24,000 bases of DNA from an uncultured Methylophaga sp. (GCA_965229455.1 OZ245877.1:60685-84684); one strand, 5' to 3'; positions 2,697 to 15,740 are shown, numbered from the stretch's first letter. Notes: a model not told the origin generated them from the sequence alone. Numbers and translations are program-made.

Positions 2697-2728
2697 CGAG
2701 AGCCGGCTGAAGTCAGCCGGCTTTCTCG
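2697..2728. terminator. Bidirectional hairpin between convergent genes
   Basis: AGCCGGCT (2701..2708), loop gaagtc, AGCCGGCT (2715..2722). Outer cgag/ctcg pairing extends the stem, and a short T-run follows. It overlaps the TGA stop (2713..2715) of the minus-strand gene. Confidence 0.55.
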
Positions 2729-3567
2729 ACCGTTTGCTGATTTGATGCAACCAGTTTCTTTAATTCAACAAAGGCCGTTGAAAGCGCTGAAATTATAAAC
2801 AGCGTGAACAGATAAAAACTCACACTATAGACGACACTGGCTAAGGTACTGGCACTCGTCAGCAATATCTTAGTAATAAATAGATACAGAAAAAATGACG
2901 TCAGTAGCGGATAAATCACAACAATCATGATGAGTTGAAAGACATTGCCATTCGACAGTGTCCACACCGACTTGATATCGGGTCGTTCCCCAACCGCTGT
3001 TCCCGGAAATACCAGGCTTAAACGTGCCAGAAGGTAAAATCCGGGCAAGATAACCAATGTGAAAACTAGGAATATACCTGAGATCAGTCCGACGTTTCTT
3101 ACTACTGACGACAGCGCCTGCCACAGCACTCCTCCCGCCAAGTGCGCTGATGCAGCCAGAAAATAAATTGCGAGGGTCCAGCCCAGGAAACGGGTTTCCC
3201 TAGCTGTCCATACAAATTCGACAGCTTGATCTGGCTGATCTTTCATGATCACCAACCGATGACAACAGCTGGCATAGGGCACAAAAATCAGCAAACTCAA
3301 GAGGAAAAAACCAAAAGCCAGTAGATTATTATCTTCAAAGAAGATGGCAGGAAAAGAATCCAAAGCCGCCAGTAATAAAATTGGTAAGCCTAGTGTTTTT
3401 AAAAGTTTTTTGTGTCTCTGCAAAACAATGTTTGCAGACTGTCTGATAATACCGACCACCGCCAGTTGAGCGGAATCTTTCTTTCGTTCTCGATCCATGA
3501 GTCTGATCCAATTTGTAGAAAAAGTCCTTATCTTGTGGAATTTATCCTCTTTTAACTCACAAGTCAC
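2713..3567 (-). CDS. Hypothetical multi-pass inner-membrane protein, low GC
   Basis: 284-codon ORF with about 6 hydrophobic helices and no motif I recognise. The start is uncertain: GTG at 3567 overlaps the upstream gene by 11 nt, and ATG at 3498 is the alternative. Three 60-nt lines I counted (from 2881, 3301 and 3361) are 33-35% GC, against 58% for a line in gdhA. Confidence 0.6.
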   Translation of the reverse strand: MTCELKEDKFHKIRTFSTNWIRLMDRERKKDSAQLAVVGIIRQSANIVLQRHKKLLKTLGLPILLLAALDSFPAIFFEDNNLLAFGFFLLSLLIFVPYASCCHRLVIMKDQPDQAVEFVWTARETRFLGWTLAIYFLAASAHLAGGVLWQALSSVVRNVGLISGIFLVFTLVILPGFYLLARLSLVFPGTAVGERPDIKSVWTLSNGNVFQLIMIVVIYPLLTSFFLYLFITKILLTSASTLASVVYSVSFYLFTLFIISALSTAFVELKKLVASNQQTVEKAG

Positions 3568-4147
3568 GTTCCAAATTCAGTCGCTGGCTGGCTACAAACA
3601 CGCCGTTTGAGAACAAATGCCAGTCAACGGTAATTTGATCATCGTTTTCAATCTCTATTTCAGAAAAGACCTCGACGTAGCGGGTACCTGTCTGTTTCCC
3701 CTGCAAGCTTCGCCTTTCCCGTTCACTGGCACTGATGAAACCGTCACTGATTCTCAGTGAGTACAAACTGCCCTTATTCATCAGGTAGACAGACTCACTC
3801 TCTATAAAGCTATTCCGGTAGGTTTTGCTCATTGAGATCAGAAACAGGGCGGTGTTGGATTGCTTAACGTCAGCTTCGACTTCCGCTTCCCGGTACAAGG
3901 GTTCAGGTGCCTCTTTATCACCCTCACAGAGAATCTCGGAAAGGGTCCCTTCCCATTCGCCCTGTAGGTTTCTGACAATATCAAGTGCCGGCTCATCACC
4001 CTGGACCGCTATCCGCTTTGCCGTGTCAGTGAAATAAGGCTCGCCCATCTGCAGATAAGTCGGCGAAGACTCAAAGCACTGATATGCCTGTACAGCCGGG
4101 GATAAAAACAGGATTGCCAGCAAGCCGGCACAGCGAATCGGGAACAT
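3557..4147 (-). CDS. Hypothetical secreted/periplasmic protein
   Basis: The ORF track extends to 4255. The internal ATG at 4147 has an AGGAGA RBS and starts a clean signal peptide, MFPIRCAGLLAILFLSPAVQA/YQ. There is no recognisable domain. It is probably co-transcribed with 2713..3567. Confidence 0.6.
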   Translation of the reverse strand: MFPIRCAGLLAILFLSPAVQAYQCFESSPTYLQMGEPYFTDTAKRIAVQGDEPALDIVRNLQGEWEGTLSEILCEGDKEAPEPLYREAEVEADVKQSNTALFLISMSKTYRNSFIESESVYLMNKGSLYSLRISDGFISASERERRSLQGKQTGTRYVEVFSEIEIENDDQITVDWHLFSNGVFVASQRLNLERDL

Positions 4148-4252
4148 GAGGCTCTCCTGTGAACCAATATTCCTGTGACAACTAAAAAACCGATTTATCC
4201 GCAGGGCTGTTGCGGGTGACCGGTGGAGCTTATAAGCTGGGGTGGAAGCTGA

Positions 4253-5659
<1,407 letters not shown>

Positions 5660-8284: not shown

Positions 8285-9646
8285 ATGATTAACCCGGAAG
8301 CACGATCACTCATTTACCTGGGTAACAGCGAACTCCCGGAGGCTATTTTCGATGCCTTGAAATCAAATGGGTGGCAGGTCTGCGCGGTCAGTGATTTTGA
8401 TCAGGCAAGAAAGGTCATCAGCAACAGCAACCTGCACGTTGGACTAGTCGAACTCTCCTGCAAACAGTCCGAGGCTTATCTCCGACAGATAGAAACTTTA
8501 CTCCGACAATATGTGAAAATTGAATGGATTGCGTTGGTTCATACCGAATATGAATCGCTTCCCAGCAGGCTCCGGCAGATCATTGTTGATTGTTTTCTTG
8601 ATTTCCACACTATGCCATTGGCTACTCAATATCTCCTGGCTAATATTGGGCATGCCTATGGTATGTCCAGAATGAAATGGGACAACCTTTCTTGTCCAGA
8701 TGATATTGAAGAAACTGAAAAAGAAATGGTCGGCAGCAGCCCGGAAATACTGAATCTCTTCAGTAAAATCCGTAAAGTGGCTAATGTTTCAGCCCCTGTT
8801 TTGATCACCGGTGAAAGCGGCACCGGCAAGGAACTGACCGCGCATGCCATTCACGAGCGCTCCAAGTTCAAGGATGGCCCTTTCATTACCGTCAATTGCG
8901 GTGCTATTCCGCTATCACTGATCCAGTCAGAGCTATTCGGCTACGAAAAAGGCGCTTTTACCGGCGCTCACCAGCGCAAGATCGGGCACTTTGAGGCAGC
9001 AGATGGCGGTACTATCTTTCTTGATGAGGTCGGCGACCTGCCGCTGGATCAACAAATTAACCTACTGCGCTTCCTTCAGGAAGGGACTATTCAGCGTGTC
9101 GGCAGCAACCAGCCAGTCCCCATCAATACCCGTGTCATCGCAGCTACGCATGTCGATCTGAATCATGCGGTTAAATCCGGCAAGCTGCGCGAAGATTTAT
9201 TTTACCGGCTGAATGTGCTGCAACTGAGAACCCCGCCACTTCGCGAGAGACAGGGCGATATCGAGCTACTGGCCAATTATTTCTTCAAAAAGTTCTCTCA
9301 TGAAAAAAGCAGTAATGTCAGAGGCTTCTCTCAATCCTGCCTGGCTGTGATGCGTGACTACGCCTGGGAAGGTAACGTGCGTGAACTGGTTAATCGTATC
9401 CGGCACGCCATGGTGATGTGCGAGAACCGCCTGATTTCTGCTGAAGACCTGGGCATAGACCAGAAATCTCATTACTTCCACTTCCTGAGCCTGAAAGAGG
9501 TCAGGGACAGAGCTGAAAAAGAAGCCATCAACAATGCGCTGCACCGTCTGCAGAAAAATGTCACGCTGGTAGCAAGAACACTTGGCGTCTCCCGGGTAAC
9601 GCTTTACCGCTTGATTGAAAAACACGGTATCAACCTGGCTGACTAG
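8285..9646 (+). CDS. Sigma-54-dependent transcriptional activator (bacterial enhancer-binding protein) with a degenerate receiver-like N-terminal domain
   Basis: AAA+ core: Walker A GESGTGKE (8810..8830), GAFTGA loop in SELFGYEKGAFTGA (8951..8968), Walker B IFLDEVGD, and R-finger region WEGNVRELVN. C-terminal Fis-type HTH (VARTLGVSRVTLYRLIEKHGI). Good RBS gggaggataatataATG. The N-terminal ~130 aa is receiver-like but lacks the acidic pocket (see findings). Confidence 0.9.
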   Translation: MINPEARSLIYLGNSELPEAIFDALKSNGWQVCAVSDFDQARKVISNSNLHVGLVELSCKQSEAYLRQIETLLRQYVKIEWIALVHTEYESLPSRLRQIIVDCFLDFHTMPLATQYLLANIGHAYGMSRMKWDNLSCPDDIEETEKEMVGSSPEILNLFSKIRKVANVSAPVLITGESGTGKELTAHAIHERSKFKDGPFITVNCGAIPLSLIQSELFGYEKGAFTGAHQRKIGHFEAADGGTIFLDEVGDLPLDQQINLLRFLQEGTIQRVGSNQPVPINTRVIAATHVDLNHAVKSGKLREDLFYRLNVLQLRTPPLRERQGDIELLANYFFKKFSHEKSSNVRGFSQSCLAVMRDYAWEGNVRELVNRIRHAMVMCENRLISAEDLGIDQKSHYFHFLSLKEVRDRAEKEAINNALHRLQKNVTLVARTLGVSRVTLYRLIEKHGINLAD

Positions 9647-9709
9647 GGCACACCAGTCCATAAAACGCTTCTCTTCACAACTTTTATGCTACCCAGGCAG
9701 GTTGCGCTT

Positions 9710-9737
9710 TCATGATTAAATTTTTTCAAAATCATGA
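9710..9737. promoter_or_regulatory. Inverted repeat TCATGATT-N12-AATCATGA, candidate upstream activator or operator site
   Basis: Perfect 8-bp arms at 9710..9717 and 9730..9737. A third CATGA copy sits at 9741..9745. The repeat lies about 180-205 bp upstream of the -24-like element. Confidence 0.3.
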
Positions 9738-9749
9738 CTCCATGATGAC

Positions 9750-9767
9750 TGTAAAGAGATCTTTACA
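9750..9767. promoter_or_regulatory. 18-bp near-perfect palindrome TGTAAAGA-GA-TCTTTACA, candidate EBP upstream activating sequence
   Basis: 8-bp arms pair perfectly and only the central 2 nt do not. TGT-N12-ACA geometry, about 150-165 bp upstream of the -24-like element. That is the usual distance for enhancer-binding-protein sites. Confidence 0.35.
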
Positions 9768-9914
9768 CGTTAAAAAAATCCGAAATCCTATTACTTAACA
9801 GTCAGTTAATTAATCACCCCCCGCATTATAGCTGTTTCATAAAGTTTACAATCCCCGCTTCTGTCCTCCGCCCAAAAATTTAAATTATTCATATTTTTCA
9901 ATCACTTAAAAACC

Positions 9915-9930
9915 AGGCACGATCTATGTA
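9915..9930 (+). promoter_or_regulatory. Candidate sigma-54 (-24/-12) promoter for the fap-like operon
   Basis: aGGCACGatctaTGta against TGGCACG-N4-TTGCW. The -24 GGCACG is perfect and the spacing is right. The -12 element is TGT rather than TGC. It lies about 43 nt upstream of the first ATG of the operon and directly downstream of a sigma-54 activator gene. Confidence 0.35.
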
Positions 9931-9972
9931 ACAGCCTTTGCACATGGTGTGAATTTCACTGGCATGGCTTAT

Positions 9973-10266
9973 ATGAAACAAACAGGCTTACCACTCAGTT
10001 TTGCCCTCCTGCTGATCATCAGCAGCAGTGGCCTGCAGGCTGAAGAAGGTCGCTACGCCAGTGCTAACGGTCACCCATTCGAAGATTTTGTCGTCGATAC
10101 CGCCGGAGGTCTGACTGACTCAGAGATGGCAAATATGCGGGCACAGGGCTTCCAGATGCCCCCCGTCGAAATCGGCGTCATTCTCTGGGATGAGGTAGAC
10201 AGTATCACCAGACCGAAAGCACAACTGACAAATACAGATGGCACGATTACCGTCACGGTTGAATGA
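9973..10266 (+). CDS. Small secreted protein, first gene of the fap-like operon (no canonical Fap counterpart recognised)
   Basis: Signal peptide MKQTGLPLSFALLLIISSSGLQA/EE, with a mature part of about 73 aa. The stop TGA (10264..10266) is 1 nt from the fapA-like ATG (10268), which suggests translational coupling. There is no obvious SD sequence. Alternative starts are at 9964 (ATG) and 9949 (GTG). Confidence 0.5.
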   Translation: MKQTGLPLSFALLLIISSSGLQAEEGRYASANGHPFEDFVVDTAGGLTDSEMANMRAQGFQMPPVEIGVILWDEVDSITRPKAQLTNTDGTITVTVE

Positions 10267-10267
10267 C

Positions 10268-10762
10268 ATGAAGAAAATAAACAACGTTTATGCAGTCATT
10301 GATGCCGCGGTCATTATTGCCCTCCTGGCAATAGCCTCATCAGTACAGGCTGAGCCCGGCGATATCATCATCATTCGCGATGTCCCTGCCCAGCGCTGGG
10401 ATGTCAATCGTCATACCGGCCAGCCAACTGTGATCAACCCCTCCCCGGTCAGAGAAACCGGCAGCCTGAACAGCACCCTCAACAACATGGGCTTGCAGGA
10501 ACTGACTGATCAGCAATTTTCCGGTATCACATCGAATGTCAATGATTCGATATCCCCGATTAACACCCAGTTCACCAGCACCCTGACCAAAGAATTAGGG
10601 GGTCACGGCAGCGGCGGCAGCAGTGTCGGCGGACATATGGGCGCGATTAACGGCATGACTTCCGGCATCGGAGGCAGTATTTCCGGCAGTGTCGGCGGTG
10701 CCACCCGCAGCCTCGGCAATGATATTCGTGGTGCCTTATCGGACACCTTACCAGGTAGATAA
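10268..10762 (+). CDS. fapA: FapA-like periplasmic, probably disordered, amyloid accessory protein
   Basis: The ORF track starts at 10238. The ATG at 10268 gives the signal peptide MKKINNVYAVIDAAVIIALLAIASSVQA/EP. The mature protein is S/T/N/G-rich with a low-complexity G/S tail (GGHGSGGSSVGGHMGAINGMTSGIGGSISGSVGG). Position immediately upstream of the FapB-like gene and the size (164 aa) fit FapA. This call is positional and compositional only. Confidence 0.55.
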   Translation: MKKINNVYAVIDAAVIIALLAIASSVQAEPGDIIIIRDVPAQRWDVNRHTGQPTVINPSPVRETGSLNSTLNNMGLQELTDQQFSGITSNVNDSISPINTQFTSTLTKELGGHGSGGSSVGGHMGAINGMTSGIGGSISGSVGGATRSLGNDIRGALSDTLPGR

Positions 10763-10764
10763 CC

Positions 10765-11382
10765 ATGAAGCTTTTACCTATCAGTCTCCTGTTTGCTTCA
10801 TTGCTGCCAAGCTTACCGGTCGCCATCGCTGATGATGCATCGATGGGCCTGCCTTATGCCATCAACAACAGCATGATCGACGGTAACGCGCTCAGTGGAG
10901 CCCGGGGCCGCAATGTTGTGAATATGGCTGCCGGTGAGGCCAACGCCCAGCAAAACGCTGCGGCGATTGCACTCAATCCCAATGGCGTTGCCAATGTTGG
11001 CCTCTTTTCACAGCAGAACCTACATCAGAATTCCAGCACGGTCCCCGGTTTATCGGTCTCCGGTATTGGCGGTAATGCCTTTACCAATACGGTCGGTGCC
11101 TTATCGATTAACCAGACCAGTGGTTCGGGCAATGCCCAGGTCAATGGGATGGCTATCGGTATCGGGCTGGATGTCAACGTCATGTCGGAAAGCATGCTTT
11201 CCAACATGTCGACCGGGGCTGGACTGGCAGCCCACGAACCAGACGGGGGGACCCGAAGCGCCACTATCGCAGATAGTGCCTTCACCGGTTCTCGCGGGCT
11301 GGTGCAAGTTAACCAGTCAGCCGGGTCGGGCAATAGCACGGCCAACCACTTTGTTCTCGAATTCGATTTGGGAACGAAATAA
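10765..11382 (+). CDS. fapB: FapB-like minor/nucleator amyloid subunit (three imperfect repeats)
   Basis: Signal peptide ..LPVAIA/DD. Three repeats share the pattern x-[LF]-x-G-x-x-G-x-x-x-[VI]-N-x-x-[AS]-G-x-x-N-x-Q-x-N. The same repeat family appears in the next gene. It starts 2 nt after the fapA-like stop. Confidence 0.8.
   Translation: MKLLPISLLFASLLPSLPVAIADDASMGLPYAINNSMIDGNALSGARGRNVVNMAAGEANAQQNAAAIALNPNGVANVGLFSQQNLHQNSSTVPGLSVSGIGGNAFTNTVGALSINQTSGSGNAQVNGMAIGIGLDVNVMSESMLSNMSTGAGLAAHEPDGGTRSATIADSAFTGSRGLVQVNQSAGSGNSTANHFVLEFDLGTK
10885..10974 (+). repeat. FapB-like repeat 1 (NALSGARGRNVVNMAAGEANAQQNAAAIAL)
   Basis: Protein-level imperfect repeat read directly from the translation, aa 41-70. 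Confidence 0.75.
11074..11157 (+). repeat. FapB-like repeat 2 (NAFTNTVGALSINQTSGSGNAQVNGMAI)
   Basis: Protein-level imperfect repeat, aa 104-131. Confidence 0.75.
11272..11358 (+). repeat. FapB-like repeat 3 (DSAFTGSRGLVQVNQSAGSGNSTANHFVL)
   Basis: Protein-level imperfect repeat, aa 170-198. Confidence 0.75.
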
Positions 11383-11405
11383 ATAGTGATTAAAAGGAGA
11401 AAGTC

Positions 11406-12584
11406 ATGAAATTTGCAACTAAATACACCCCCATTGCCGTCGCGTTGGCGGCGCTGGCTGCGGGGCCCGCAATGGCCGATGGTACAGCCGATCTCACTCT
11501 GCTGGTTGATGCCAAGGTCAACGCCCGGGCTGATCTGGGACTGAGCGTGTCGGAATACAAAAACGATACCGAAGTCACCGTCGAAAAAACCTCTGACACT
11601 GATCGTTATATTGATGTCAAAGGCGATATCGACGTTGAAGGTACGATTCCCGTTGGCAGCAGCTCTGCTTCGCTGACCAGTCAGAATCAGAACAACTATG
11701 AAAACACCAACATTGATGACGGTCATGGTGATTTCCTGGTGGATAACAAAGCTGAGTCTGTTGAAAATGGTCTGCAAGGTGCGAGTGGTAATATCGGTCT
11801 GAACATCTCTGCCGGTACCAACAATGCACAGGACAACAGCGCAGCGTTATCCAAAGTGGATGCTGAGTTTGTGTTTGCTGCTGCTGACTCTATTTCCAAC
11901 CAGAATGCAGAACGTAACACCTATGCCTACAAAGGCAATCAGTTTGATGCCACCCTGGGTGGAAACACACTGCGTGATGCCAGCGGTAATATTGCCGTCA
12001 ACATCGCCGCCGGTAACAGTAATCTGCAAGCCAACTCACTCGCTGCCTCTGTTAACACCAGCGGCACCATGGCAGAAGCCACTGTTTCCAGTCAGCAAAC
12101 CCTGGATCACAACGTCACCCATCAACAAGGTTACCTGGACAAAAAATATGACACTGTCAATGTGACCATGGTCGGTGGACTCATTGGTGGTTACAAAGGC
12201 ACTTCAGACCAGATTGGTGATGTCTATCCAGACATCTGGACTGGTGACACCCACCCAGACGGTATTCAAGTAGGCCATTTTGATCTTGATACCAATACGC
12301 AAGGTGGCTCTGACCTCAATGATGATGGGGGTGCGCTGGCATTCAACGAAGAAGGCAAAATCCTACTCGGTGGTGTGTTCACCGGTCAGGTTGTGACTGC
12401 CAACTGGATTGTTCGTCCGCATGAAAACAATGCCACCCTGAGTGGTAATGCGCTACGCGGCGCCAGCGGTAACATCGGGGTCAATATCACCGCAGGTACC
12501 AACAACCTGCAAGGCAACCATTTGTCTATCGCTGCAGCGACTGGCGGACCGGGTGCTGGTGGCGGCGGTGGTGGCGAACAATAA
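11406..12584 (+). CDS. fapC: FapC-like major functional-amyloid subunit (three conserved repeats, long linker 2, poly-Gly tail)
   Basis: Strongest RBS in the operon (aaaaggagaaagtcATG). Signal peptide MKFATKYTPIAVALAALAAGPAMA/DG. Three highly similar repeat cores, [LQ/LR][GD]ASGNI[GA][LV]NI[SAT]AG[TN][NS]N[AL]Q[DAG]N. The R1-L1-R2-L2-R3 architecture is characteristic of FapC. The protein is N/Q/G/A/T-rich and has no Cys. Confidence 0.85.
   Translation: MKFATKYTPIAVALAALAAGPAMADGTADLTLLVDAKVNARADLGLSVSEYKNDTEVTVEKTSDTDRYIDVKGDIDVEGTIPVGSSSASLTSQNQNNYENTNIDDGHGDFLVDNKAESVENGLQGASGNIGLNISAGTNNAQDNSAALSKVDAEFVFAAADSISNQNAERNTYAYKGNQFDATLGGNTLRDASGNIAVNIAAGNSNLQANSLAASVNTSGTMAEATVSSQQTLDHNVTHQQGYLDKKYDTVNVTMVGGLIGGYKGTSDQIGDVYPDIWTGDTHPDGIQVGHFDLDTNTQGGSDLNDDGGALAFNEEGKILLGGVFTGQVVTANWIVRPHENNATLSGNALRGASGNIGVNITAGTNNLQGNHLSIAAATGGPGAGGGGGGEQ
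11772..11849 (+). repeat. FapC-like repeat core R1 (LQGASGNIGLNISAGTNNAQDNSAAL)
   Basis: aa 123-148. Codon positions were verified against the nucleotide sequence. Confidence 0.85.
11970..12047 (+). repeat. FapC-like repeat core R2 (LRDASGNIAVNIAAGNSNLQANSLAA)
   Basis: aa 189-214. Codon positions were verified. Confidence 0.85.
12453..12536 (+). repeat. FapC-like repeat core R3 (LRGASGNIGVNITAGTNNLQGNHLSIAA)
   Basis: aa 350-377. Codon positions were verified. Confidence 0.85.
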
Positions 12585-12624
12585 GGAAATCGAACCCCTA
12601 TTGGGTTTGATGCCACCCATGAAT

Positions 12625-12652
12625 CTCCGGCTCCGTTTGGAGCCGGAGTTTT
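12625..12652 (+). terminator. Intra-operon rho-independent terminator/attenuator between the fapC-like and fapD-like genes
   Basis: Perfect 10-bp GC-rich stem CTCCGGCTCC / GGAGCCGGAG with loop GTTT, followed by TTTT. It lies 40 nt after the fapC-like stop and immediately before the GGAGA RBS of the next gene. Confidence 0.75.
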
Positions 12653-12668
12653 CCTGGAGACCGTCGCA

Positions 12669-13370
12669 ATGCAAGTGATTAAAAGCACCTTATTGCTGTT
12701 GGGCGCATCCGGCCTGTGGCTGACGATGTCCTTCAGTAGTGCCGCGAATATTCAGTTCAGCGGTGTCGTCCCCGGCACCATGATCAATAAAAACATTATC
12801 AGTATGCGTGAGCAGCATTTCGTCAATATGGTGCCGCAGCAGACTGACTTCAGTTGTGGTGCCGCCGCACTGGCAACCATCCTGAACTATGCCTATAACT
12901 TCGAATTAACCGAAGCCGATGTCATTGAAGGCATGCTCAAGGTCAGCGACCCGCAACTGGTGCAAAGTAAGGGGTTTTCTTTACTGGATATTAAGAATTA
13001 CGTAGAGACCCTGGGGCTGCGCGGACGCGGATACTCGGTCAATCCAGACATCCTGGATCGCATCAAAATCCCCACTATCGCTTTGCTGGATATAAGAGGT
13101 TACAAGCACTTTGTGGTGCTTAAAACCGCGACTCAAGACAAGGTATATATCGCTGATCCGGCCCTGGGCAACAGGGTCATGGACAGGCAGGACTTTATTG
13201 ATGGTTGGAACAAAGTCACTTTCGCCGTCATTGGCGATGGTTTTGACCGTGACACCATTCTGTTACGTCCCAGGGAACCACTGACCGCAAGAAGTACGGT
13301 TGATACATGGCGACCGCTGACTGATGCGGAGTTGCTCGAGTTCGGGTTTTATCGATCCGAGTTGTTCTGA
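12669..13370 (+). CDS. fapD: FapD-like periplasmic C39-family cysteine peptidase
   Basis: Sec signal peptide (MQVIKSTLLLLGASGLWLTMSFSSA/AN). C39 catalytic motifs: QTDFSCGAAALATIL (Cys63, codon 12855..12857), GYKHFVVL (His) and YIADPALG (Asp). 233 aa, with no fused ABC-transporter domains. Confidence 0.85.
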   Translation: MQVIKSTLLLLGASGLWLTMSFSSAANIQFSGVVPGTMINKNIISMREQHFVNMVPQQTDFSCGAAALATILNYAYNFELTEADVIEGMLKVSDPQLVQSKGFSLLDIKNYVETLGLRGRGYSVNPDILDRIKIPTIALLDIRGYKHFVVLKTATQDKVYIADPALGNRVMDRQDFIDGWNKVTFAVIGDGFDRDTILLRPREPLTARSTVDTWRPLTDAELLEFGFYRSELF

Positions 13371-13419
13371 TGCCTGCCTGAACATGCATTGTCGCTGACG
13401 GAAAGGCTCGGCAATCAGT

Positions 13420-14304
13420 ATGGAGAAAGGACAAATGAGAATCATGATAAGTACGGACGGCAAGGAGAGCTCTCCGCCAACCAGCCAGGAAGGCCTTCCC
13501 GCGACCCGGCGCTTTAAACCGAAAGCCGTCGCGTTATCCGCCGCCCTGATTTTCTGCATTACAGCGCCCCATCATGCCTATGCCGAACTCCCTGAAATGG
13601 GGGTTTTTGCTAACGCCCACGAGCTTTCAGATGATGTGCTGGGAGAAACGCGCGGTAAATTCGTATCAGGCGGCCAGATCATGACTTTTGGGGTGCAGAT
13701 GATGACTGAATGGATTACCTCATCGGGTGAGGTGATCAATGCCAGCGGCAGGCTCGCAATCAGTATGGGACAGGGTCAGCCCAGAGTCAGTTTTGAACCC
13801 GTGATTAACGTTCACCAGGTACAGGTAAACCAGGTTGCAGTCTCTCAAGGCACCAATGTTGTCAGCGGCAGCAAAGGGCTCGATAGTGTGACGGGGGTGG
13901 TTCAGAGTATTCAGGTCGCGGGCAATGCGAATGGTATCGGTAATTCCATCGGTGTTTCTGTCAGGCGATACAACGGTGGTCATGGCGTTAACACATCGAA
14001 TTCACCTGGAAACCTGAACGTAATTACACCTTCAGGTAATGCAGCCAGCGTCTCATTGGCTAACAATGGATTATCTGTTGCCGTCGACGTCGTTGACCAG
14101 GGTCAGGCACAGCAGGCGATTCGGAGCATCTCCCAGGGCAATGGACAGGTCATGCAGTCAGTCCGTCTGGGCGGCAGCCTGAATCAAATTCGCAACATGA
14201 TTAACCTGGATATTCAGACCCGGATTGATCGAACAGGCCCGAATCTGAATCAGCAGCAGGTGCTATCGTCCCTGCGCCAGTTATCTCCCACACTGAATTT
14301 CTAG
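13420..14304 (+). CDS. fapE: FapE-like secreted Q/N/G/V-rich protein (minor fibril component)
   Basis: Position between the C39 peptidase and the OM barrel gene. Signal peptide ..ALIFCITAPHHAYA/EL. Q/N/V/G/S-rich beta-prone sequence (VHQVQVNQVAVSQGTNVVSG, QSIQVAGNANGIGNSIGVSV). The start is ambiguous among ATGs at 13420, 13435 and 13444. Confidence 0.6.
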   Translation: MEKGQMRIMISTDGKESSPPTSQEGLPATRRFKPKAVALSAALIFCITAPHHAYAELPEMGVFANAHELSDDVLGETRGKFVSGGQIMTFGVQMMTEWITSSGEVINASGRLAISMGQGQPRVSFEPVINVHQVQVNQVAVSQGTNVVSGSKGLDSVTGVVQSIQVAGNANGIGNSIGVSVRRYNGGHGVNTSNSPGNLNVITPSGNAASVSLANNGLSVAVDVVDQGQAQQAIRSISQGNGQVMQSVRLGGSLNQIRNMINLDIQTRIDRTGPNLNQQQVLSSLRQLSPTLNF

Positions 14305-14408
14305 CATGGCTTAACTGATCATGAATAAGCACTCAAACCCGTCGATCAATAAACCCATACAAGCTGTTTGACAGCTATCGCAATGGGATAACCAGCCAGG
14401 AGCCTGTC

Positions 14409-15686
14409 ATGACTGAGACATCATTTCCTCACCGCGCCCTTAGCCTCTGTATCGGTCTGGCCCTGGCCTCACCGATACAGGCGGCTACCGATGAAGAAGT
14501 TGCGGCGTTGCAGCAGCAAGTTAAGGAAATACAGCATCGTTATGAACAACAAAATGCGGTGCTCAGAGCCATGGCGGTTAAGATACAACTGTTGGAGCAA
14601 GAGTCTAAGCCACGTTCGGTGAAGGTCGGCGGCAATACGCCACCTCAGCCTGGCACTTCCGCCGAACAGGGTGAGCCGCAAGCGACCACTCAGCAGGCGC
14701 AGACTGAAGGAGAGGTGGTCAAAGAAGCCCCGGCCTCACGCAGTGCCGAAGCGGTCTACCGCGAACAGCACACCCTGTTTGACCGCAAATTCACCATCGA
14801 ACCCGGTTTGAGCTATTCACACTCAGACAGAAGAGACTTGTTCCTTAACGGTTTTCTCGCTCTGGATGCCATATTCCTCGGCGATTTGAGCCTGGACAGA
14901 ATTAAGGCCGATACCTGGACCTTCGATCTTACCGGCCGTTACAGCTACAGTGATCGTCTGCAATTTGATGTCAATGTCCCCTACCTCTATCGTGATTCAT
15001 CATTCTCAACCGTAGGGGCCGGCTTCGCTACCAACTCGGTTGCCGAAGACGATGTCTCAAACGGCGATCTCGGCGATATCAGCTTCGGTGCTTTCTATCG
15101 TCTGTTCCAGGAGCAGGGCTCACGACCTGATACTGTCGTCAGCTTACGGGTTAAAGCACCGACAGGTAAGGATCCCTACGGTATTAAATTCATCACCGTC
15201 TCCGACAGTGGTGATAATCTGACCATACCGACGGAGTTGCCGACCGGTAATGGTGTCTGGTCTATCACGCCGGGCATCAGCTTTATCAAAACGACTGATC
15301 CGGCAATTTTGTTCGCCAATCTGTCCTATACCTATCACTTTGAGCGTTCATTCAGTGATATCAGTACAGACCCGGAGACGCGTACCAGCGCAGATGTTGA
15401 TCTGGGTGACAGTTTTGCAATCGGCGCCGGTTTTGCTTTTGCACTCAATGAAAACCTCAGCGCAAGCATGTCTTATTCGCACCGTATTACCCGCGAAACC
15501 AGTATTAAACAACGGGGCCAGTCTGAAGTGAGCGTCAACGGCAGCGATGCCAGCGCCGGCCTGCTGAACTTCGGTCTCAGTTATGGCCTGGCCGATAACC
15601 TGACGATGTCGGCCAGTGTCGGTATTGGCATCACTCCGGATGCACCGGATGTCACTGTAAGCGTGCGCTTCCCTTATAACTTCTGA
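14409..15686 (+). CDS. fapF: FapF-like outer-membrane amyloid secretion channel (coiled coil + disordered linker + beta-barrel)
   Basis: RBS aggagcctgtcATG. Signal peptide ..LASPIQA/AT. Heptad-patterned helix ATDEEVAALQQQVKEIQHRYEQQNAVLRAMAVKIQLLEQE (14487..14606). P/Q/E/T-rich linker (14607..14753). About 300 aa of alternating-polarity beta-strands ending in the OMP C-terminal signature VRFPYNF. Confidence 0.8.
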   Translation: MTETSFPHRALSLCIGLALASPIQAATDEEVAALQQQVKEIQHRYEQQNAVLRAMAVKIQLLEQESKPRSVKVGGNTPPQPGTSAEQGEPQATTQQAQTEGEVVKEAPASRSAEAVYREQHTLFDRKFTIEPGLSYSHSDRRDLFLNGFLALDAIFLGDLSLDRIKADTWTFDLTGRYSYSDRLQFDVNVPYLYRDSSFSTVGAGFATNSVAEDDVSNGDLGDISFGAFYRLFQEQGSRPDTVVSLRVKAPTGKDPYGIKFITVSDSGDNLTIPTELPTGNGVWSITPGISFIKTTDPAILFANLSYTYHFERSFSDISTDPETRTSADVDLGDSFAIGAGFAFALNENLSASMSYSHRITRETSIKQRGQSEVSVNGSDASAGLLNFGLSYGLADNLTMSASVGIGITPDAPDVTVSVRFPYNF

Positions 15687-15697
15687 TGATCGTCTCA

Positions 15698-15740
15698 GAC
15701 AAAGCCGCACTCTCTGATCAACGCGGCTTTGTCTTATTAT
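15698..15740 (+). terminator. Putative operon-end terminator
   Basis: 11-bp stem GACAAAGCCGC / GCGGCTTTGTC (15698..15708 and 15723..15733) with a 14-nt loop, followed by TTATTAT. It lies 12 nt after the fapF-like stop. Confidence 0.55.

Follow-up and report, generated by a model that had tools for sequence, protein, structure and literature searches.

A predicted Fap functional-amyloid locus of an uncultured Methylophaga with a BrfA-type regulator and a conserved additional gene

A stretch of 24,000 nucleotides (nt) of DNA from an uncultured Methylophaga sp. (GCA_965229455.1 OZ245877.1:60685-84684; hereafter referred to as the window) was analyzed, with a group of genes at positions 8285–15740 as the subject. 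An original prediction, made from the sequence of the window alone, had assigned these genes to an operon of the Fap functional-amyloid type with an added gene and a dedicated-looking sigma-54 regulator. We find that the region is very likely a complete Fap functional-amyloid biogenesis locus that combines BrfA-type regulation with an extra gene, X. As judged by comparison with other loci, X represents a conserved, unannotated family and is a regular component of fap operons outside the pseudomonads. X is the new part of the locus; the Fap operon and the BrfA-type regulator are of already known kinds.

Fap, one of the two models for functional amyloids in bacteria, has been portrayed as a six-gene operon that is evolutionarily 'fixed' (PMC12822426). 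The broadest published screens for fap operons, in which the operon was called 'fixed', used hidden Markov models (HMMs) of the six Fap proteins only (PMC12822426, PMC3792158), so extra genes were invisible to them. This picture would have to be revised if many fap operons outside Pseudomonas contain a conserved seventh gene. Our literature searches turned up no mention of a seventh fap gene or of 'FapG', and no publication on Fap in Methylophaga or Methylophilaceae.

The operon encodes divergent homologs of all six Fap proteins

Reading of the open reading frames (ORFs) at positions 8285–15686 revealed eight co-directional genes on the plus strand, one coding for a sigma-54 activator and seven coding for secreted proteins. 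All of them were found where the original prediction had placed them, the seven genes being tightly spaced, with intergenic gaps of 1, 2, 23, 84, ~64 and 104 nt in order from X through fapF. All seven proteins (7/7) were judged by eye to have Sec-like N-termini, in which a basic n-region is followed by a hydrophobic core and an AXA-like site.

The products of the six genes downstream of X were compared with profile HMMs. Each matched the NCBIfam Fap model of its own protein, without a competitor from any other family in the NCBIfam scan. The E-values obtained were 4.5e-10 for FapA (plus strand, as are all genes of the operon, 10268–10762, 164 amino acids (aa), with 10238 as the start of the longest ORF), 1.5e-29 for FapB (10765–11382, 205 aa), 7.8e-52 for FapC (11406–12584, 392 aa), 1e-86 for FapD with the C39_FapD model (12669–13370, 233 aa), 6e-34 for FapE (start at 13420 or 13435, end at 14304; 294 or 289 aa) and 2.3e-146 for FapF (14409–15686, 425 aa), the last match covering model positions 6–420 of 420. 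Two of the proteins were also matched to solved structures: residues 109–425 of FapF align with the crystallised FapF barrel 5O65 (E 8.7e-99), and FapC aligns with the cryo-electron microscopy FapC entries 9NQD and 9U4U (E 5e-13). The similarity of FapB, FapC and FapF to their namesakes is thus significant, and the proposed Fap type of the operon is upheld. By homology, FapA would be a disordered periplasmic chaperone, FapB and FapC the repeat-bearing fibre subunits (minor, or nucleator, and major, respectively), FapD a periplasmic C39 cysteine peptidase, FapE an accessory subunit, and FapF a trimeric outer-membrane secretion channel with a coiled coil, a Pro/Gln linker and a beta-barrel.

Further sequence features agree with this assignment. 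Three matches to the minimal Fap-repeat expression from the literature, X15-G-X4-N-X3-G-X6-N-X7 (PMC3792158), were obtained in each of the two proteins for which three repeats had been predicted, at residues 33, 96 and 163 of FapB and at residues 113, 179 and 340 of FapC. The fapC gene is preceded by a perfect AAGGAG Shine-Dalgarno sequence, as expected from the remark that its ribosome-binding site is the strongest of the operon. The free-standing peptidase matches Pfam Peptidase_C39 (E 4e-23), and its catalytic residues, Cys in TDFSCG and His in GYKHF, are invariant. FapA aligns with Pseudomonas FapA, with the common motifs GD(G)-I-V-x-R-x-V and EL-x-D; FapE aligns with Pseudomonas FapE and carries the N-terminal E-L-S-D-x-x-L-x-x-x-R-G-K motif that is nearly universal among FapE proteins. 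The predicted C-terminal Phe of FapF was also seen, the protein ending in ...PYNF. Among named sequences, FapF is closest to 'Fap amyloid fiber secretin [Methylophaga thiooxydans]' (85% identity), and the nearest genome locus is that of an uncultured Methylophaga (83%). The host is therefore taken to be a Methylophaga-like gammaproteobacterium.

What counts against the Fap assignment is that all six NCBIfam scores lie under the equivalog cut-offs (for FapF, 488 bits compared to a cut-off of 700). The six proteins are, therefore, homologs that have diverged from the Pseudomonas proteins, rather than their close orthologs. The parts list of the original prediction needs one amendment: its six Fap genes in canonical order stand, while its 'disordered G/S-rich protein' is FapA itself, so the sole gene beyond the canonical six is the first, small one, X.

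Gene X belongs to a family associated with fap operons

Gene X (plus strand, 9973–10266; alternative start at 9964 or 9949) codes for 97 aa, and its stop codon is separated from the fapA start by 1 nt. The protein has no match to any Pfam or NCBIfam family. A single-sequence search with X returned only four clusters, all in syntenic Methylophaga-like regulator-X-fapABCDEF loci. ORFs of the same design were read between the regulator gene and fapA in Methylophilaceae, Sulfuriflexus and an uncultured gammaproteobacterium. The design consists of a signal peptide followed by the motif D-x-[DE]-L-x-x-[IM]-x-G-x-G, then an LWD core and a short C-terminal strand. In the window the motif reads L-T-D-x-E-M-x-x-M-R-x-x-G; the LWD core is invariant in the family and takes the form ILWDE in the closer members.

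A profile of the family was used to search 1.84 billion representatives and matched 193 clusters at E <= 1e-3. All members with readable neighbours sit in fap operons, and the three distant ones with enough flanking DNA show the gene order fapC-X-(fapA)-fapB-fapD-fapE-fapF. Neither Pfam nor NCBIfam families were matched by 33 members of the X family, and 10 further distant members had no Pfam match. The same profile was run on six-frame translations of all fetched fap loci. It matched 11 of the 14 genomic loci of non-Pseudomonas type in which the 5′ region of the operon is covered; the misses are two Polaromonas loci and locus L015, where the content after the regulator is different. No match was obtained in ~60 loci of the Pseudomonas type. 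The 'added gene' of the original prediction is thus a real extra gene, yet not a peculiarity of the window copy, since its family occurs in fap operons of several non-pseudomonad lineages.

Several rearranged operons were encountered among these loci. In more distant ones (seen at 4828–5244 of L088 and at 2683–3135 of L090) fapC has moved ahead of X, giving fapC-X-fapA-fapB-fapD-fapE-fapF. In six Methylotenera loci (L012, L013, L014, L016, L017 and L038) fapF is found upstream of the regulator gene. It directly adjoins that gene in L014 and L017, giving fapF-regulator-X-fapA-fapB-fapC-fapD, followed by fapE in L017 (the L014 contig ends first), and is separated from it by ~7 kb of other genes in L012, L013, L016 and L038. 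Two proteins of the X family, P0156 and P0159, carry the leader-like motif described below twice.

Possible role of X

X would be translationally coupled to fapA and would encode a Sec-exported, intrinsically disordered protein of ~74 residues. AlphaFold2 (AF2) models built on alignments of 33 and 150 sequences are mostly disordered (predicted local distance difference test values of 59 and 65; predicted template modelling score of 0.20); at low confidence, the motif forms a short helix in them and the C-terminal part a beta-hairpin. Alignment of the X and FapE profiles with hhalign brought together the motif only, pairing X GLTDSEMANMRAQ with FapE ELSDDVLGETRGK (E 1.7e-5, probability 79%). 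In the window, a strict form of the motif expression matches once each in X, FapA and FapE and nowhere in the 4,799 other encoded residues. The motif [EL]-L-[ST]-D-x-x-[LFM] may be a system-wide recognition box. Two candidate relationships of X were considered and rejected: X as a FapA paralog (hhalign probability 1.6%, no match to the NCBIfam FapA model) and X as a homolog of the full FapE N-domain, with which 19 columns align and no more. Among the encoded proteins, [EL]-L-[ST]-D-x-x-[LFM] is found at residue 47 of X, residue 79 of FapA and residue 64 of FapE, and a near-match, PLTDAELLEFGF, lies in the conserved C-terminal tail of FapD (~13300–13367).

Double-glycine leaders, with the consensus LSxxELxxIxGG, are recognized and cleaved by C39 peptidases. 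The similarity of the X motif to such leaders suggests, without proving it, that X is recognized by the C39 peptidase FapD. FapD is essential for secretion and its target has been reported as 'unclear'; the FapE N-terminus is apparently removed in vivo, and FapE co-purifies with fibres (PMC5557850). Since X carries a leader-like motif of the FapE type, we propose that it is recognized by FapD, FapF or both, and it could then be an additional processed accessory factor or a regulator of secretion. X is a second natural sequence with a FapE-type N-terminal motif, which makes the question of the FapD target directly testable.

In its most specific form, our proposal is that X is a seventh Fap component, ancestral to or acquired in the non-pseudomonad branch, that the motif L-[ST]-D-x-[DE]-[LM]-x-x-[IM]-x-G-x-G is the FapD recognition sequence, and that X is a processed co-factor or decoy gating secretion through FapF. 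We put this forward tentatively and rate it as rather unlikely. Our proposed role of X is speculative in general, as the homology between X and FapE is confined to 19 columns, the X motif lacks the canonical GG, and the AF2 confidence for X is low. A serious rival, compatible with recognition by FapD and possible though doubtful, is that X acts beside FapA as a periplasmic anti-aggregation chaperone or inhibitor, like curli CsgC, CsgH and CsgE, and is not a FapD substrate. X is always found immediately before fapA and translationally coupled to it, takes the position of FapA directly before fapB in locus L091, is predicted by AF2 to be disordered like FapA, and shares with it a related EL-x-D-x-x-F motif; against this, homology between X and FapA is undetectable, with the hhalign probability given above.

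The N-terminal motif common to X and FapE, the latter co-purifying with fibres (PMC5557850), and the predicted C-terminal beta-hairpin of X would also fit export of X via FapF as a minor constituent of the extracellular fibre, for instance its anchor, its tip or a nucleator. We consider this reading unlikely, as X is very short and has neither a Fap repeat nor a Q/N-rich segment. That X could be a lineage-specific hitch-hiker ORF without any role in Fap has to be weighed as well, given that Pseudomonas forms Fap fibres although X is absent there (~60 loci of the Pseudomonas type), and that X is also missing from the Polaromonas loci. However, the LWD core is invariant across Gamma- and Betaproteobacteria, the position of X in the operon is always kept, and X persists in rearranged operons, which makes a mere hitch-hiker highly improbable.

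The regulator is of the BrfA type

The first gene of the region (plus strand, 8285–9646) codes for a sigma-54 enhancer-binding protein of 453 aa with a VpsR-like N-domain, an AAA+ domain containing GAFTGA, a lid, and a Fis-type helix-turn-helix. Pfam domains VpsR (9e-20), Sigma54_activat (1e-69) and HTH_8 (5e-6) were detected, and residues 9–385 match the VpsR structure 7V2B. Pseudomonas regulators encoded next to fap align with the protein from end to end at 43–45% identity, with GAFTGA and Walker A and B motifs invariant. Several N-domain residues are invariant among the aligned fap-adjacent regulators, and the receiver aspartate is present in none of them.

Regulator genes were surveyed around fap in genomes that represent species (80 loci). 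In ~70 of the 80 genomic loci, a homolog sharing this N-domain is encoded within a few kb of fap, on either side. In Pseudomonas and Halopseudomonas its gene is located downstream of fap on the opposite strand; in Methylophaga, Methylophilaceae, Sulfuriflexus and the uncultured gammaproteobacterium it is located upstream of fap on the same strand. BrfA of Pseudomonas fluorescens PF07 is an RpoN-dependent, cyclic di-GMP (c-di-GMP)-sensing activator of fapA (PMC9207406, PMC13101488), and brfA is a 1,326-bp ORF downstream of fap on the opposite strand (PMC9207406). The fap-adjacent regulator of P. fluorescens in our set, with 441 aa, agrees with the published brfA in both length and position. By its sequence, the window regulator is a BrfA ortholog, that is, the known type of fap regulator. 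The 'dedicated-looking sigma-54 regulator' of the original prediction is accordingly a sigma-54 activator beside fap, as stated, and nothing peculiar to this copy: with a BrfA-type gene beside fap in almost every locus, such a regulator is to be expected.

The fapABCDEF loci of Polaromonas, L010 and L011, contain neither X nor a BrfA-type regulator gene within 10 kb, nor could a sigma-54-like promoter be found ahead of their fapA genes.

A conserved promoter and palindrome arrangement upstream of the operon

A strict search of the window for sigma-54 promoters (TGGCAC-N5-TTGCW, at most 2 mismatches) yielded 18 sites with 17.9 expected, i.e., the level of chance. The promoter was located only by comparison of loci. 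Perfect TGGCAT-N5-TTGC(A/T) sites are present upstream of the first operon gene in loci L014, L017, L019, L020 and L023, and CGGCAC-N5-CTGCT sites upstream of fapA in Pseudomonas. The homologous site in three Methylophaga lineages (9915–9930 in the window, 9997–10012 in L001 and 5430–5445 in L008) has an invariant GGCA in its −24 element and TGTA or TGAA at −12. The −12 GC is near-universal, being retained in Methylophilaceae, Sulfuriflexus and Pseudomonas, and is GT or GA in Methylophaga. The probable sigma-54 promoter of the window, AGGCACGATCTATGTA (plus strand), thus has the conserved −24 GGCA and a −12 GT instead of GC. An overlapping candidate, TGTAACAGCCTTTGCA at 9927, lacks GG, is not conserved in L001 or L008, and was rejected.

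Two further blocks upstream of the promoter are conserved among the Methylophaga loci. Each is an 18-bp palindrome that fits TGTWWC-N6-GWWACA. In the window, the proximal one, TGTTTCATAAAGTTTACA (9833–9850), lies 82 bp upstream of the −24 element and the distal one, TGTAAAGAGATCTTTACA (9750–9767), 165 bp upstream of it; the latter is kept in Methylophaga loci L001 and L008. These putative upstream activating sequences (enhancers) are assigned to no strand. Of the 61 loci with a canonical promoter, 46 have such a palindrome at −81/−82, at −161 to −166 or at ~−240 relative to the −24 element, the background being 0.07 per kb, or 0.016 expected per search interval. The −81/−82 palindrome is present in Pseudomonas, Halopseudomonas and Methylophilaceae loci, the one at −161 to −166 in many fap loci, and the spacing in the window (−82 and −165) is the same as in the other loci. 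It is this spacing that independently places the probable window promoter at 9915–9930. Together, the data indicate an operator architecture common from Pseudomonas to Methylophaga, and the conserved arrangement of palindromes and promoter predicts a BrfA operator across Beta- and Gammaproteobacteria. The regulator would bind the two palindromes upstream of the sigma-54 promoter and activate a single X-fapABCDEF transcript, probably responding to c-di-GMP like BrfA.

Two observations are unfavorable to a sigma-54 promoter at this site: the window −12 element is TGTA rather than TGCA or TGCT, and no canonical sigma-54 site is present in the regulator-X intergenic region. Combined with the VpsR-type N-domain and the match to the VpsR structure, the missing −12 GC could mean that there is no sigma-54 promoter here and that the regulator works in a VpsR-like manner, via sigma-70. 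We regard this as quite improbable in view of the intact and invariant GAFTGA and Walker motifs, the conserved −24 GGCA, and a palindrome spacing equal to that of loci with perfect sigma-54 promoters; moreover, no sigma-70-like site was found in 9647–9972.

Hairpins and neighboring DNA

A terminator scan revealed a GC-rich hairpin followed by a T-tract between fapC and fapD (plus strand, 12625–12654; −27.4 kcal/mol, z −5.5). It has a 10-bp stem with 8 GC pairs; this stem is retained in the Methylophaga loci L001 and L008, with a loop that varies. The hairpin is probably a partial terminator or attenuator. It would adjust the amount of subunit transcript relative to machinery transcript, probably leaving more transcript over the subunit genes than over the machinery genes. 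A second hairpin, with a 12-bp stem, follows fapF (plus strand, 15697–15734; −21.5 kcal/mol, z −4.2) and likely marks the end of the operon. An Rfam scan of the window returned no matches.

Outside the fap region, two ORFs of 284 and 232 aa without a Pfam family were noted on the minus strand at 2713–4255, in a stretch of lower GC content (0.46). They take the place of a single ORF of 196 aa at the syntenic spot of the related locus L001. Between gdh and the TonB-dependent receptor gene, L001 further has a DUF808 gene, which the window lacks. The 2713–4255 segment is a variable island beside conserved flanks.

Comparison with known systems

The likeness of X to the curli proteins CsgC, CsgE, CsgF and CsgH is one of kind: all are accessory proteins of small size, exported via Sec and encoded within an amyloid operon. 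No sequence similarity between X and these proteins was found, and X, unlike them, is predicted to be disordered. With double-glycine leaders, the motifs of X (LTDSEMANMRAQ-G) and FapE (LSDDVLGETRGK-F) share the hydrophobic and acidic spacing and, usually, a Gly at −2; AF2 predicts a short helix there. In contrast to those leaders, the X/FapE motif is internal, following a Sec signal, and its −1 residue is K, R or Q rather than G. An ABC transporter is absent as well.

Like the window regulator, Vibrio cholerae VpsR combines a receiver-like N-domain of family PF20161 with an AAA+ core, and it is a regulator of biofilm matrix. VpsR is not known to carry GAFTGA and works with sigma-70, whereas the window regulator keeps GAFTGA. 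The correspondence with BrfA is closer. It extends to the domain architecture, the intact GAFTGA, the position of the gene adjoining fap, a probable −24/−12-type promoter before the first operon gene, and the same 18-bp palindromes at equal distances. The two systems differ in the position and orientation of the regulator gene, in sequence (at the 43–45% identity noted above) and in the −12 GC, degenerate in Methylophaga.

The functional-amyloid system fapABCDEF of Pseudomonas was reportedly described by Dueholm in 2010 and 2013. It shares with the window the same six proteins in the same order, three imperfect repeats each in FapB and FapC, a periplasmic C39 FapD with the catalytic Cys and His, and a FapF composed of coiled coil, linker and barrel. 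The proteins of the two systems are only ~25–50% identical. The window differs in having a longer FapC (392 aa), gene X before fapA, a regulator gene that precedes the operon in the same orientation (in Pseudomonas it follows the operon in the opposite one), and a host from a methylotroph lineage. Apart from X, both the operon and the regulator belong to known families, of which they are ordinary representatives.

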